From: Felis catus
Taxonomy: Eukaryota
Reading direction: 5' to 3'
Length of the DNA: 64,000 nt
Assembly: GCF_018350175.1 (NCBI RefSeq)
Contig: NC_058368.1
Coordinates: forward strand, 80,850,001-80,914,000
Below, piece by piece: positions 23,304 through 58,625 of this stretch. The translations under genes and the position numbers were made by a program. Position 1 is the stretch's first letter. Each line of letters begins with the position of its first letter. A model generated the notes under the pieces. It made no database searches, was not told where the DNA came from, and saw only the letters and a list, made by a program, of their open reading frames with translations.

Positions 23304-23618
23304 GGGCACCTGGGTGGTTCAGTTGGCCGAGCATTGGACTCCTGTTTCCAGCTCAGGTGGTAATGTCACAGTTTGTGAGTTCAAGCCCCGTGTCAGGCAC
23401 AGAGCTTACTTTAGGGGCACCTGGGGGCTCAGTCAGTTAGGCATCTGACTCTTGATTTCGGCTCAGGTCATGATCTCACAGTTCATGGGATTGAGCCCTG
23501 TGTCAGGCTTTGTGCTGACAGCAGGGAGCCTGCTTGGGATTCTCTCTCTCCTTCTCTCTGCCCTTCCCCCACTTGTTCTCACTCTAAATAAATAAATAGA
23601 TAAACAGTAAAAAAAAAA
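23304..23618 (+). mobile_element. Dimeric Can-SINE (short head monomer + full monomer)
   Basis: Two GGGCACCTGGG starts (about 23304 and 23415); one TSD AAAAAGTATGTGC at 23289-23301 and 23619-23631. Confidence 0.85.
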
Positions 23619-24058
23619 AAAAAAGTATGTGCAGCTCCAGTGACAGTGTGCTGAGGAAGGACTGAGCATGGGTTTGTGTGACCTTGAAGGAGTCACATAA
23701 CCTCTCGCTGGTTCTGTTCTCCAGTTAAAGAAATCACAGTGAAGATTCATGCCCTCTGCGTCCGAGATCTTTGTGACTGGCCAAAACCTACCACGCCCAG
23801 AGGGGTGCTGTTTGTGGAGGGATTCAGGCACTGATGGTGGATGCTGTCGGGCTCTGGGCTGTGCCCGCTGGCTGTGCGGATACAGCAGGTGCTGGTCCAA
23901 CTGTGCGGGTGACTCCTGAGAAGGACAGCCAGGACTTAGAGGTTGGTGGCATTTACAAAGTGGGCTTTTTGTTCCCTCTCCCTTAAAGATCTGGGGCCAG
24001 CACCCCACCCTGCCCTTAGAAAGATTCTGTATGTGTATTTAAAAAACCTTGTATGACA

Positions 24059-34884: not shown

Positions 34885-35094
34885 AAATTTTTTTTAATGT
34901 TTATTTATTTTTGAGACAGAGAGAGACAGAGCATGAACGGGGGAGGGGCAGAGAGAGAGGGAGACACAGAATCTGAAACAGGCTCCAGGCTCTGAGCTGT
35001 CAGCACAGAGCCCGACGCGGGGCTCGAACCCACAAACCATGAGATCATGACCCGAGCCAAAGTCGGAAGCCCAACCGACCCACCCAGGCGCCCC
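34885..35094 (-). mobile_element. Can-SINE (felid)
   Basis: TTTATTTATTTTTGAGACAGAGAGAGACAGAGCATGAACGGGGGAGGGGC...CCAGGCGCCCC. Confidence 0.95.
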
Positions 35095-37158: not shown

Positions 37159-37386
37159 TTTTTTTTTTTTAATTTTTTTTTTAAGTGTTTATTTATTTTT
37201 GAGACCGAGAGAGACAGAGCATGAATGGGGGAGGGTCAGAGAGAGAGGGAGACACAGAATCTGAATCAGGCTCCAGGCTCTGAGCCGTCAGCACAGAGCC
37301 CGACGCGGGGCTCAAACCCACAAACCGCGAGATCATGACCTGAGCTGAAGTCGGACGCTTAACCGACTGAGCCACCCAGGCACCCC
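37159..37386 (-). mobile_element. Can-SINE (felid)
   Basis: Full antisense body; TSD GAGAAACTCTT at 37148-37158 and 37387-37397. Confidence 0.97.
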
Positions 37387-51534: not shown

Positions 51535-51715
51535 TAATATATATCTTTTAAATACGTATGTTTCTTAGAGAGCACAATCAGGGGAGAGGGGCAGAGGGGG
51601 AGGGAGGGAAGGAGAGGGAGAGGTGGAGGGAGAGAGAGAGAGGGAGAGGCGGAGGGAGAGAGAGAGAGAGAGGGAGGGAGAGAGAGAGAGGGAGGGAGGG
51701 AGGGAGGGAGGGAGG

Positions 51716-51777
<62 letters not shown>

Positions 51778-51896
51778 AGCAGGCTCCATGCTCAGCACGG
51801 AGCCTGATGCGGGGCTCGATCCCATGACCCTGGTTTCATGACATGAGCCAAAATCAAGAGTCGGACGCTCAACAGACTGAGCCCCCCAGGTGCCCC
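51535..51896 (-). mobile_element. Can-SINE with expanded (GA/GGGA)n tract
   Basis: Long GA-rich run 51590-51773, then CAAGCAGGCTCC...GAGCCAAAATCAAGAGTCGGACGCTCAAC...CAGGTGCCCC. Confidence 0.92.
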
Positions 51897-53005: not shown

Positions 53006-53215
53006 GGGGCGCCTGGGGGGCGCAGTCGGTTAAGCGTCCGACTTCAGCCAGGTCACGATCTCGCGGTCCGTGAGTTCGAGCCCCGCATCAGGCTCTGGGC
53101 TGATGGCTCGGAGCCTGGAGCCTGTTTCCGATTCTGTGTCTCCCTCTCTCTCTCTGCCCCTCCCCCGTTCATGCTCTGTCTCTCTCTGTCCCAAAAATAA
53201 ATAAACGTTGAAAAA
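53006..53215 (+). mobile_element. Young felid Can-SINE (SINEC_Fc-type)
   Basis: Nearly identical to the 24059 copy; perfect TSD AAAACAGGCTACTGG (52991-53005, 53216-53230). Confidence 0.97.
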
Positions 53216-55879
53216 AAAACAGGCTACTGGTAAACCTAGATCTCGTGCTTTGAATAAAAGTCACCAAGGTGATCCCAGAGTAATTGTAGACCTGGTTTTG
53301 GTCTGGCAGACCCCGAGCAAAGCACTGGATGAACACGTCCTTCGGCACCCTTCCTTCTCTCGGTGATGTGTTGCTAAGTACCTGGTAGCACTGATTTCCA
53401 GGCAGTGGGTTGGGCGAGTTTTCACCGCCTGAACGGGGCCCGCCTTGAAGCTGCTTAACGTTGTTCCAAACGGAGAGTGAAAACCAGTTGTTTCCTCAGA
53501 CCTCTTCGCTTCTGTGCCGCCTTCCCGGGGCTTTTGTATCTGAGTGTTGCTAGTGTAGAATTGGCATTTTCCCCAACTTAATTTCTTTTTAAAAATATAA
53601 ATTACTATTTTTTAGATGGCTGTTTCAGCTTTTGACTAAGCAGTACCGTGAATGAAGTCATGGGTTTGATGCTCTCTGTTTTCTTGTCTTGTTACTTGTT
53701 CATGTGTTGCTGAGATCACCTGTGTGTGTCCTGCAGCCTGCATAATCCCAGGGTGGATGGGGTACCCGAGTCCTTCAGGAGAGATGAGGTTTAAGCAGAG
53801 ATAGCATCTGTTCAGTAGAGGATTAAATAGAGCACCTGAAGGTGAAGGTTCCCCACAAAAGCTGCCAGGACACGTGTCCTACCTTTCCACGAGAACTTTA
53901 AAAGTCTCAAGGTTCTGGCTGTGTACAGTACAGAGAGATTTAGGAGGTCCTCCCTGGAGCATTTTCTCAGCTGGCTGCAGCTGGGAAGTGCTGCGGATTC
54001 GGGATTTATGTGTGTGGAACAGTTGGTTAGAAATACCCACTGAGCAGGTGTTCTTGGAATCAGAGTATGGACTGATTTGATTGCTGGAGGCTGGTTCCCT
54101 GGCAGCATGCAGGACATTTGTTTGGGAGAGTGCTGGAGGCCCACAGCTGAGGAGGAGAGGGGAGGAGTGGGGGGATGCGGGGGAGCCAATGGGAATCGGG
54201 CTGGCCATGGTCTCAGTGGAGCACCTGGCTGGCCCCGTGGGGCGCCGTGAACCTGTGTGGTCTTTCAGGCTTTCCTGAGTTTGGGCAAGAGGACCAACCC
54301 TTTCTAGCCTGGGTGGGCCACCTTCCACGTGGGCTGTGTCCAGAGGGGTGACCTTGGGTGAGGCGGCTCTCTCTGGACAGGGCTGTCCCTGAGAAGGGCT
54401 GGTGGCCGAGGGCCGGCCTCCAGCAGCTTCCTGTGTCCAGGAGTGGGACCTTGCCTTCTGAGGTGGGACAGGTGGGGTCATAGCATCTTCCCCATTCACA
54501 AGGCAGGCATGTTTGACACTTGCCTCTTACGTATGCCATTGAGCCCTTTACACATCTTGTTGTGAATCCTCTCAATACACTTAAGAGGAAGGCATTTTTA
54601 TCACTTCCATTTATCGTGTGATAAAACTTTCATCCCAGGGTGGTAAAGGCACCAACATCAGTGAGTGGTTGAGTAAGGAGATGGAACCAGTGGGCTCACT
54701 CCAGGGCTCATTCCACTGTTGGGAGTTAAGTTCTGTAGATGTGTGCACACGCATATTTTACGTGTGTGTATAATGGACACACACGTGTGTATACATGTGT
54801 GTATAAATATATATCTTATGGGCGTACGTGTGTGGATATATATGTAAACCTGTGTACAGCCTCGCCTCGTATGCTGGTTCAGATGCTGCCAGAAATAGTA
54901 TTACCTGAAAACGTGTGTCAGGTGGTGGATGAGATAGAACTATCACTTTCTACCATGAGGGGAGAGCCGTCTGTGGAGGAAGGAGGCCCAGGATCTAGAG
55001 AATGCGGGTGGTTTGGCCCTTGAGGCCCAGAAGGCAGGGCTCGCACACCAGGTCTGGGGTCCGAGATTCTGGCCACCACATCCCCGTGGCAACCACAAGG
55101 TTTGAGAGGAGAAGCGTTTTGGACCCCTCCATGTGGGGGTGTGTCGGACAGTCTTTGCCCCAGCCCGTGGAGGGGTGTCTCAGGCCACCTGGGGAAAGAG
55201 CCCAGATGTGTCGGGAAGCTGTATTTTCCTCTCCCAAGTCAGTCTCTGTTCATCCACCCCTTTGTCTCCTTGTCCGTCCCCCACGCAGTCTCTGGATCAA
55301 AGGGCGGATTCGGGGCGGCAGTGAAGGAAGAGATCCCTACGGAGGCGTGTTCGGTTGCCCACTAGCCATTGATTAAGGCTTTGAAATTTGAATGCATTTC
55401 ATCATGGTTGCAATTATTTTAGCCTGGGGGGGAAAAAAACTTTCATAGCAGGTGCTCACCAGCACCATTAGGAAGAAAAGTAAATTACCTGAATAGTAAC
55501 TTTAAAAAATGTCATATGCTTGGGAACCTCCCGAGATACTGGTTGTAAAATGCTCTCAGTGATAACACAGTGATTTAATTTGCTGCATGAGGTCCTTAAT
55601 GATAAACCAGCTGAATAATGGTGATGAGTATTGGTGACATCGAGCTTAATTTTGGAATATATCAGGTCCTTGTTAGTGACGGTAGAACGGTGCCATCTGT
55701 GATGGGAAATACTTGCTTTCCAATTTTCCAGGGGGTGGAGTGGGGAGAAAGCATATGGGTGGCTCTTCCAAAAACGGCTTTAAAAGCATTCTTGTGTTTA
55801 CCTTTCTAGAAATTATTACGGGATTCAACAAAGGAAGTTTGCTACCCTACTGACACGTGAGGTGGTGTTAAGGAGAAAG

Positions 55880-56221
55880 TTTTTGTTTTTTTTAACTAAA
55901 ATTTTTTTTTTTTATTTGAGAGAGAGAGAGTGTGAGCAGGGGAGAGGGGAAGAGAGAATCCCAAGCAGGCTCCCACGACCATGGATCATGACCTGAGCCG
56001 AAACCAAGAATCCAAAAAATTAAAAGTCCATTTCTCAGGACAACTCTGTGCATAAAGAACACGCAAGATTCTATCAGAGAGATGACTGGCGTGTTCTTAA
56101 TCATCTTGTAGGATTCCGATTGGAGTAAAACAAAGTTACAGCTTTTATCGGTTTATCCTTAACCTTTGCATATGTGAGAGCAATCCAACCTAGGCTCAAA
56201 CCGATGAGCCACCAGGCGCCC
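55880..56221 (-). mobile_element. Can-SINE split by a 186-bp inverted copy of downstream DNA
   Basis: SINE sequence runs to GATCATGACCTGAGCCGAAACCAAGAATCC (56013) and resumes at GCTCAAACCGATGAGCCACCAGGCGCCC (56194-56221). Confidence 0.9.
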
Positions 56222-56470
56222 TGGGGCAGGTTTTGAATAAGTGTAATCAATGGCATTTTAAAAAAAATTTAGCACCTATAACTTAGCCTAGGTTGGCTTA
56301 CTCTCACATGTGCAAAGGTTAAGGATAAACCAATAAAAGCTGTAACTTCGTTTTACTCCAGTCGGAGTCCTACAAGATGATTAAGAACACGCCAGTCATC
56401 TCTCTGATAGAATCTTGCGTGTTCTTTATGCACAGAGTTGTCCTGAGAAACGGACTTTTAATTCTTAGGA
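56011..56470. repeat. Long inverted repeat: 186-bp arms, 88-bp spacer
   Basis: 56011-56196 aligns without gaps to the reverse complement of 56285-56470, with 10 mismatches by manual count. Confidence 0.97.
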
Positions 56471-57449
56471 AAGAAAGTGGATCAGTGCGGCAAACAGTAG
56501 GACTAGTGTCGTGAAAGGCCTACAGCTGAGGAGGGGTGTACGATTTCCATGTAAAGAAAGGCCTGCGATCCCACCAGACAGGGCTCATTAATTTAAGACA
56601 GTTGAACTCATAAGCATCAGAGTTCACAATTCAATTATGCAGGGAGATAATCTTCCTGTGGTGGTTTATTTAGCTCGTGAGTTCTAATTAATTCTGTTCC
56701 ACGAGGGAGGGCTGCAGAGAGCAGCCTGGGCCCATAATCTCAGGGCTGTTCGTGTTCATTTTAGTAAGCTGTGCCCACGCACACGCGCGGCATAAAATAC
56801 CTTCATCCAGTCTCTGCTGCATTTAGCTGACGACCTCAAGAGTCAGTGTTGGGATATTCTTTTTACTGAGCAGGCAGCAATTTCTAGAAACCATTGGGTT
56901 GGGTTCTGACTCTGCAGAAGCTGCCTATGGCAACTGTCCTGCTCCCTGTCACCAGTTTGGATGCTAAAAATAAGTAACAGATTCAACTCCAAGGATGACT
57001 CTGGTTGATAAGAGTCTATTTACAGTCTACCTGATCTGCTTCTGTCCTTTGGGGCCCCAGGATGCTCTCATTTCACTCCCGCATCAAAGCTCACTCCTCT
57101 CACCGTCTTCTGTGAGCCAGACCACAACCTACCTGAGTGCCCTGGTTTCTGATCTTCCTTTCTGGGCTTTCGACGAAGGTGAGGATGTCAGATGGCCCTC
57201 ACAGTGGTAGGTTGAACACAGGGACAGGGAGTGGGACAGAACAGCTGGACTCTGAGGACAAATGCTTCGAAGAGTTGTTACTAGGTGCCACATGTCCAGG
57301 ATGGTGATACTTTGCTCTCAGTATGTTTGGATGAGCTTGTTGTAGGATTTATTTTATTATAATGTGTGCATGTGTATATATCCTATTTATTCATTTGGCC
57401 CACCTTGGGTGAGGGCTACGTACCAGATACTGGGCGTAAAGTGGTAGGC

Positions 57450-57765
57450 TCGTCGGGACAAGCTAAGTTTTGTGAGGGAAACCACAGCCCCCAGAGCTCA
57501 GTAACCTGAAACAGCAAAGGCTGCTCAAGGTCCAGTTGGGGTCCTCCCTGTGTCTCTTCCCCTGCAGGCAGCACCCTCGGGAATGGTCAGCTGTGGTAGA
57601 AGAGAGAGTGGGAGCTGTGGAAGGCCTTTCCCCAGCAGTCCGGTCCTTTGGGCCAGAAACAACACACGTGATTTCCACTCACAGTCCATTGGCTGAAACT
57701 GGCCACGGACCCTCCCAAACACACGGGGTCAGGAGGGGCACGTCCCTCAAATGCCCACAGAGCCC
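57450..57765 (-). mobile_element. Old MaLR LTR fragment (MLT1J-L-like)
   Basis: CTCAGTAACCTGAAACAGCAAAGG...GGCCAGAAACAACACACGTGATTTCCACTCACAGTCCATTGGCTGAAACT. Confidence 0.55.
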
Positions 57766-58394
57766 GGGGCCAGGGGTGTTTGGTGGTCAGCAAAGTGACT
57801 GCCCGCGTGGCGTGGACACATCTGTGCGGTACAGTTCGGTTGGGCAGCTGGACATCAGCAGATGATTGCAGAAGTCACCACTGCGACCCTGATACGTGCC
57901 CTGGGGCAGTCTGAGGCATCACATGTGGTCCTTGGGCATTGTCGTCTATTCATGAGAGTAGTTTCTTGTTAGAGGTTTGACATCTCTCGGGTGGAATAAA
58001 TCACAGCCCGTAAACACTTAGAAGCCGAGGAGATTGACTAATAACTCTTGGTGGTTTTTAAATCCTATTCGCTAGGTCTCTTGGGTTGAGGGGTCTGGTT
58101 GGACCAGAGGAGTTCTGACTTGGCCCATTTGGATTTGTTTGATCCACAGAAACTATTCTCGGTCAGCCATTCTCGGTACGGGTCAAAGGCAACAGCAACC
58201 TGATATTTTGGGTTTGCGTATCAGATTTTCCAGGAAAATAGGTTTTGCTGCTTTGAGATATAATACAGACCAACCTCAAATAATTCTTTCACGTGAGAGC
58301 AATCTGAGGCCCGAGGAAGTTAGTGGCTTCTTAAGGCTATGTTAGAAACTAATGTCAGAGCTCAGTTGCTGCTTTCATTTTTCTAATCACTTAA

Positions 58395-58625
58395 AAAAAC
58401 TGTGGTGGAATGCATATAAATAAAATGTACAGTTTTCACCATTTTACATATTTTTAAGTGTAAGTTCAGTGGCATTAACTGCGTTCACATAGTTGTGCAT
58501 CCCTCACCGTCGTCCGTCTCCAGAACTTCCTCCCCACCTGAAACTGTCCCCATTAAACACCGAGTCCCCATCCCTACCCTGTGGCCAAGAGCCCGGTGTC
58601 CCCCCAGACTTTGGGTGCTCTGTGC
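58395..58625 (-). mobile_element. L1MB-like 3' end
   Basis: TTTTTAAGTGTAAGTTCAGTGGCATTAA...TTCACATAGTTGTGCA...TCTCCAGAACTT...GAAACTGTCCCCATTAAACA. Confidence 0.8.

Follow-up and report, generated by a model that had tools for sequence, protein, structure and literature searches.

A cat Can-SINE split by an inverted copy of its own 5' flank: a long template switch possibly made during insertion

Template switches and templated insertions described so far

Short-range template switches of the 3-2-1-4 and 1-4-3-2 types each make one inverted repeat and account for 31% of 794 human–chimpanzee events; such mirror types are indistinguishable, and the authors of that survey lean in general towards inter-strand switching (PMC5453318). 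In the ape gold set of 1,503 events the median length is 12 and the maximum 128 (PMC7954356), and in unmasked human sequence the per-person maxima are 97–180, with 318 overall (10.1101/2021.11.26.470150). For MMB-TI, 10 and 11 classical events of at least 25 bp have been reported in two donors (PMC8421209). Hairpins born in this way are seldom annotated as microRNAs, with only 57 such cases in 6,054 miRNA-sized template-switch hairpins of the human lineage (10.1101/2023.04.19.537475), and mammals carry millions of inverted duplicates of at least 10 nt, of which 7.8% of the human intergenic set is expressed (PMC5398296).

Inverted flank sequence is also reported at new retrotransposon insertions. 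Three new L1 insertions have inversions at the reciprocal end, one of them an inverted duplication attributed to resection, fold-back and displacement (PMC11702581, Fig. S9C and S10). In tumours, 3,598 somatic insertions included 22 that were templated, as a rule shorter than 250 bp and no more than 15 bp from the site (10.1101/2024.08.27.596794). The steps that complete retrotransposition, namely synthesis of the second strand and joining at the 5' side, are described as an open question (PMC11702581).

The cat locus described here is like the 3-2-1-4 and 1-4-3-2 switches in that nearby DNA was copied as its reverse complement, with a return near the point of exit, giving a new inverted repeat around an uninverted spacer. 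Unlike the ape gold set, it has a copied tract of 180 nt, and unlike the surveyed switches it lies inside a SINE; repeats are for the most part masked in such surveys, which leaves switches within SINEs uncounted. With MMB-TI as described (PMC8421209) it shares an inverted template less than about 100 nt off, here starting 94 nt from the exit, a small deletion, and microhomologies of 3 nt and 2 nt or a longer microhomeology, with the proviso that junction matches of 2–3 nt also occur by chance. It departs from MMB-TI in having one long tract with further SINE indels around it, and in that the enzyme is not identifiable from the sequence. Polymerase-theta snap-back insertions, too, combine an inverted nearby template, microhomology and a small deletion, as at the cat locus.

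Likeness to the published L1 reciprocal-end cases lies in an inverted copy of the reciprocal-side flank, <250 nt long, beside the 5' end of a retrotransposon, whereas the cat event concerns a germline SINE and is fixed and old, its copy is enclosed by the element, 28 nt of whose 5' end remain on the outer side, and the template starts 54–66 nt from the site. As in template-switch-born hairpins and microRNAs (10.1101/2023.04.19.537475) and expressed inverted duplicates (PMC5398296), a single event yielded a fully paired stem, but at 186 bp this stem is far beyond the 30–55 nt of the miRNA-sized class in the former report. The mutation class is known; what is new is an unusually long member, inside a SINE and possibly made during its insertion. 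In the literature searched, which was mostly non-subscription, we found no germline SINE or Alu interrupted by inverted sequence from its own flank; the 22 templated insertions of the tumour preprint (its Fig. S4d) may include internal inverted cases.

The inverted repeat and the split Can-SINE

The window analysed is 64,000 nt of Felis catus DNA (GCF_018350175.1, NC_058368.1, 80,850,001–80,914,000, forward strand), and all positions are relative to it. Positions 56011–56196 are the ungapped reverse complement of 56285–56470, with 176 of 186 nt identical (95%), across a spacer of 88 nt (56197–56284) that is not inverted and comprises the SINE 5' end plus flank. Eight of the 10 mismatches are transitions and two are transversions, and 3 of the 10 fall at CpG sites. 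A repeat finder and alignment reproduced the arm coordinates, the 10 mismatches, the 8 transitions and the 88-bp spacer that an initial sequence-only reading had given. This is the sole long inverted repeat that the repeat finder returned in 54000–58500, and self-comparison of the 64-kb window yielded one other inverted match with arms <3 kb apart, a pair of SINEs (71% identity), and no third copy of the arm. A 25-nt motif of the arm matched nothing in metagenome contigs, and a SINE pattern matched nothing in metagenome and viral contigs; these collections contain no usable cat DNA, and the blanks carry no information. Folding of 55880–56500 (−366 kcal/mol, z −29.9 against 20 shuffles) restates the repeat; no unusual fold was found in the spacer region (56194–56300 as DNA, z −0.66).

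The right arm (56285–56470, plus strand) appears to be the original flank, which served as the template; its ancestral status is suggested by the SINE that the left arm interrupts. Without its shared ends the left arm is a 180-nt inverted copy (56014–56193, minus strand) of 56288–56467. Within the template arm, two perfectly complementary stretches of 10 bp enclose a 24-nt loop (56383–56392 and 56417–56426; 14 of 16 when extended); this small inverted repeat was copied through without a slip and recurs in the left arm at 56055–56064 and 56089–56098; a stem of that length is present in 3 of 158 other 186-nt tiles.

The left arm lies inside an antisense Can-SINE, with 28 nt of the element's 5' end cut off from the rest. 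Against 13 near-complete copies in the window, 56194–56221 aligns as the first 28 nt and 55884–56013 as the remainder of one Can-SINE, both antisense and consecutive, which confirms the split that had been read from the letters alone. Twin priming was considered and rejected, as the two SINE parts share one orientation. All on the minus strand, the element consists of an A-rich tail (55884–55917), a 3' part (55918–56013) with the (CT)n region, the tRNA-related body, a 7-nt ‘long’ motif and one or two one-base deletions, and the 5' 28 nt (56194–56221), which hold the A box and three one-base indels and keep both CpGs.

The exit junction (56194–56196) has a 3-nt microhomology, or 5 of 6 nt with a one-base bulge. 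At the return junction (56011–56013) 2 nt are common with the SINE, the third base is template-derived, and ∼4 SINE bases were lost; a slip-back over a shared 6-mer, with 4-nt homology, fits equally well. Two of the 10 mismatches between the arms occur no more than 7 nt from the return junction. Of the two microhomologies proposed in the sequence-only reading, GCT holds at 3 nt, whereas TCC shrinks to 2 nt, its third base being present in 1 of the 13 in-window SINE copies. The same reading had some 40 bp missing from the SINE near 55972; the deletion is real, but comparison with the closest in-window relative (51769–51896) corrects its size to 35 nt, with a GGA microhomology at 55971–55973 (minus strand).

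Two candidate copies of a target-site duplication, uncertain at 9 of 12 identical positions, flank the element on the tail side (55872–55883) and the 5' side (56223–56234), both given on the plus strand. The latter ends at TTTT/GA, which we take to resemble the L1-endonuclease site motif. This best candidate sits in the expected register, and its 5 matches at 8 non-A positions have a chance probability of ∼0.04 at one register. The same search applied to the control copies gave a perfect match of 11–18 nt for 3 of 12 and a near match for ∼3 more.

Age signals from the arms and the SINE

The arms have diverged by 5.4% (CI 2.6–9.7%), which at a carnivore rate of 1–1.5 per billion per year corresponds roughly to 10–45 My, an estimate that could be too low if the arms were homogenised. 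About 7–8 of the 10 differences appear to be derived in the left arm, as polarised by CpG and GC-to-AT bias only, and the excess over the right arm is not significant. An APOBEC or ADAR signature was rejected: left-arm changes include 3 C-to-T and 3 G-to-A, free of strand or TC bias.

In ∼73 scored positions the split SINE has five one-base indels and one non-CpG substitution, or four and two in another alignment, compared with 9 indels and 54 non-CpG substitutions across the 13 controls, none of which has more than two indels. The excess gives a Poisson p of 0.006 for four or more, in a scoring where one control was covered on 2 of 3 blocks, the control consensus mixes subfamilies, and up to three differences beside the return junction were left out. 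These indels occur on both sides of the insert. All four of its CpGs are kept, whereas the controls together keep 14 of 52 and the four ‘long’ copies of the window keep 3 of 16 (Fisher p 0.007); for the arms the figure is 9 of 12 (p 0.53). By these CpG and substitution counts, the split SINE would be no older than the duplication.

Two other signals say otherwise. Feliform CanSINE subfamily I is described as having a diagnostic 7-nt motif at position 36, with GGGA in subtype IA, and is dated to 45–60 Ma, with 26 of 28 loci placed in the feliform ancestor, two in non-felid feliforms and none felid-specific (PMC4084570). In the split SINE a segment of 7 nt agrees with that motif at 5 of 7 letters, and the GGGA is present; the position-116/118 motifs fall within its deleted part. 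In addition, 3 differences in 12 positions of the candidate target duplication have a p of 0.024 at the divergence of the arms and 0.26 at 15%. On whether copy and SINE are of the same age, then, the CpG and substitution counts say yes, and the target duplication and subfamily say no.

Mechanism and timing of the switch

Whatever its timing, the left arm is very probably the product of a template switch; the structure, the junctions and the order of the switch, on the minus strand 3-2-1-4 (mirror 1-4-3-2), can be read directly at the locus. The out-and-back switch to adjacent DNA that the sequence-only reading had proposed is well borne out by this geometry and by the junctions. Both timings that it offered, a switch by the L1 reverse transcriptase during insertion and later break repair, are plausible; the sequence favours a fold-back of the minus strand over a jump of the first-strand cDNA. 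We favour, at a probability of about one half, a microhomology-primed fold-back that occurred as the SINE insertion was being completed. The strand, the timing and the polymerase (polymerase theta or ORF2p) we infer as follows.

When an antisense element inserts by target-primed reverse transcription, it is the minus strand that has its 3' end at the 5' junction. Resection at the 5' junction would expose the flank minus strand, which would supply both the end and the template that the event requires. The SINE would first undergo target-primed reverse transcription of the L1 type. On the reciprocal side, at the 5' junction, the 3' end would then copy ∼28 nt of the SINE and release, fold back and pair through the 3-nt homology with its own flank, resected and 88 nt distant, copy ∼180 nt of it, and return to the SINE ∼4 nt further on through the 2-nt homology. 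Additional slips would leave the one-base indels and the 35-nt deletion, and the product would since have decayed neutrally. Since the copy lies within the SINE, with another 28 nt of the element on its far side, second-strand synthesis would already have been under way at this end when it folded back.

Several observations support a switch at the time of insertion. The minus strand is the strand whose 3' end sits at the reciprocal end; the switch left the SINE after its first 28 nt and took its template from the 5' flank, a conjunction that we estimate a random later event would produce about 1 time in 13 (0.15 × 0.5); a resected reciprocal end that folded back is likewise described for the inverted duplication beside a new L1 insertion (PMC11702581), and templated insertions of <250 bp occur among somatic insertions (10.1101/2024.08.27.596794); and the split SINE combines its full set of CpGs with excess indels on both sides of the insert. 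Against this reading stand the age of subfamily I, 45–60 Ma, beside arms that differ by only 5.4%, the candidate target duplication with its differences at 3 of 12 sites, and the start of the template 54–66 nt from the site, compared with typically within 15 bp in L1 templated insertions. The closest published case (PMC11702581, Fig. S9C) is also described without a 5' element piece between flank and copy. We hold it possible, more tentatively than the fold-back as such, that what survives here is a fossil, in the germline, of second-strand synthesis during the retrotransposition of a SINE, in which a slippage-prone polymerase extended the reciprocal end by some tens of bases on the cDNA, folded back into the resected flank and resumed on the cDNA. 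Since 180 nt were copied without an indel, the SINE indels may instead stem from the source element rather than from a sloppy polymerase.

The main alternative, a serious one to which we give slightly less than even odds, is that an old subfamily I SINE was later struck by an ordinary short-range template switch, ∼10–45 Ma by arm divergence. A break or stalled fork in the SINE followed by snap-back synthesis (polymerase theta end joining or MMBIR-type), or a leading/lagging switch, would give the same junctions with no retrotransposon involved; the type makes up that 31% of human–chimpanzee events (PMC5453318), and a small deletion, a nearby inverted template and microhomology form the MMB-TI signature, reported among germline variants in people (PMC8421209). 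Both the subfamily age and the target duplication at 9 of 12 indicate a SINE older than the arms. A later switch, however, requires 4 of 4 CpGs to have lasted ∼50 My, leaves the indels on both sides of the insert unexplained and the 5'-proximal exit and 5'-flank template to chance, and places 180 nt at the top of the published length range.

It is improbable that the L1 reverse transcriptase, while making the first strand, jumped from the SINE RNA to the flank plus strand (a displaced DNA flap or nascent transcript) and back. Such a jump would yield the same product and age signals as the minus-strand fold-back, RNA-templated errors would restrict indels to the SINE, and L1 templated insertions have been modelled as cDNA dissociating onto nearby DNA (10.1101/2024.08.27.596794). 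Yet the plus strand 250 nt past the nick would have to be single-stranded or transcribed, and resection would probably remove it; because of this need for a single-stranded flank plus strand, we prefer a fold-back that starts from the 3' end on the minus strand.

A MITE with long terminal repeats, or an inverted repeat that predates the SINE, would also fit near-perfect arms and a short spacer, but we consider this highly improbable, given that a single arm lies within the SINE, the spacer contains the SINE 5' end in the element's own orientation, the outer ends lack a TA or 8-bp duplication, and the 64 kb hold no further copy.

Least credible of all is that assembly or amplification created the left arm as a chimera, since the arms differ at 10 sites with a transition and CpG bias and since a share of 0.99 of 162 words sampled from 55300–57000 occurs in 14 of the 24 sequencing runs listed, which all come from one organism; 8 of these 14, from 4 studies, are not flagged as a possible source. 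Without the left arm and its junctions 157 of the 1,671 31-mers (9.4%) would be lost, giving a score of ∼0.91 for a genome of that kind; a share of 0.99 would then have a p of ∼2e-5, assuming evenly sampled words. On these word shares and the transition and CpG bias, the left arm is genuine and an assembly chimera very unlikely.

Taken singly, the locus matters little, being a long, clean example of a known mutation type; it is of use as a lead. Counting, across whole genomes, the SINEs that an inverted copy of their own flank has split, with the side and position of each recorded, would bear on switching during insertion. If the fossil reading is true, mammalian genomes should hold SINEs or Alus interrupted near the 5' end by inverted copies of the 5' flank only, and that class would be a countable footprint of how, and by which enzyme, retrotransposition finishes. 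The split SINE could also serve as a homoplasy-poor marker for feliform phylogeny.

Hairpin, transcription and other features of the window

The sequence-only reading had suggested a hairpin RNA or a substrate for ADAR or Dicer. Nothing supports a functional hairpin at the cat locus: all 10 arm differences break Watson–Crick pairs and none is compensatory, Rfam has no match in the 64-kb window, and no host exon was found. Three of the differences give G-U on the plus transcript and five on the minus transcript; any transition yields G-U on the transcript of one strand. If transcribed, a 186-bp stem is expected to attract ADAR, as a consequence and not a function. Four RNA runs hold 0.27–0.64 of the words, but all are metatranscriptomes and may carry DNA; two further RNA runs, at 0.12 and 0.09, count as no evidence.

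In the search for host exons, 140 of 293 crude exon candidates were compared with Pfam and gave one weak match below the cut-off; a gene free of Pfam domains, or a lncRNA, is possible. An exon-like stretch at 55492–55617 had PDB matches at E 0.7 only. The surrounding AT-rich segment 55489–55695, with no Pfam or PDB match, is open for 69 codons on the minus strand and ends at a good splice donor; it could be a non-coding exon or regulatory element.

ARAGORN called a tRNA-Gln (35008–35089) and a tRNA-SeC (37296–37381); neither is a tRNA gene, as both lie within Can-SINE bodies. The SINE pair that appeared in the self-comparison (51714–51896 and 53006–53192) is in opposite orientation, 1.1 kb apart. 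At 51582–51774, the (CT)n region of SINE 51769–51896 has expanded to a purine/pyrimidine tract of ∼190 nt. Two old ‘long’ Can-SINEs stand head to tail at 23304–23409 and 23414–23625, the first truncated where the second starts; arrays of SINE into SINE have been described (PMC4084570).
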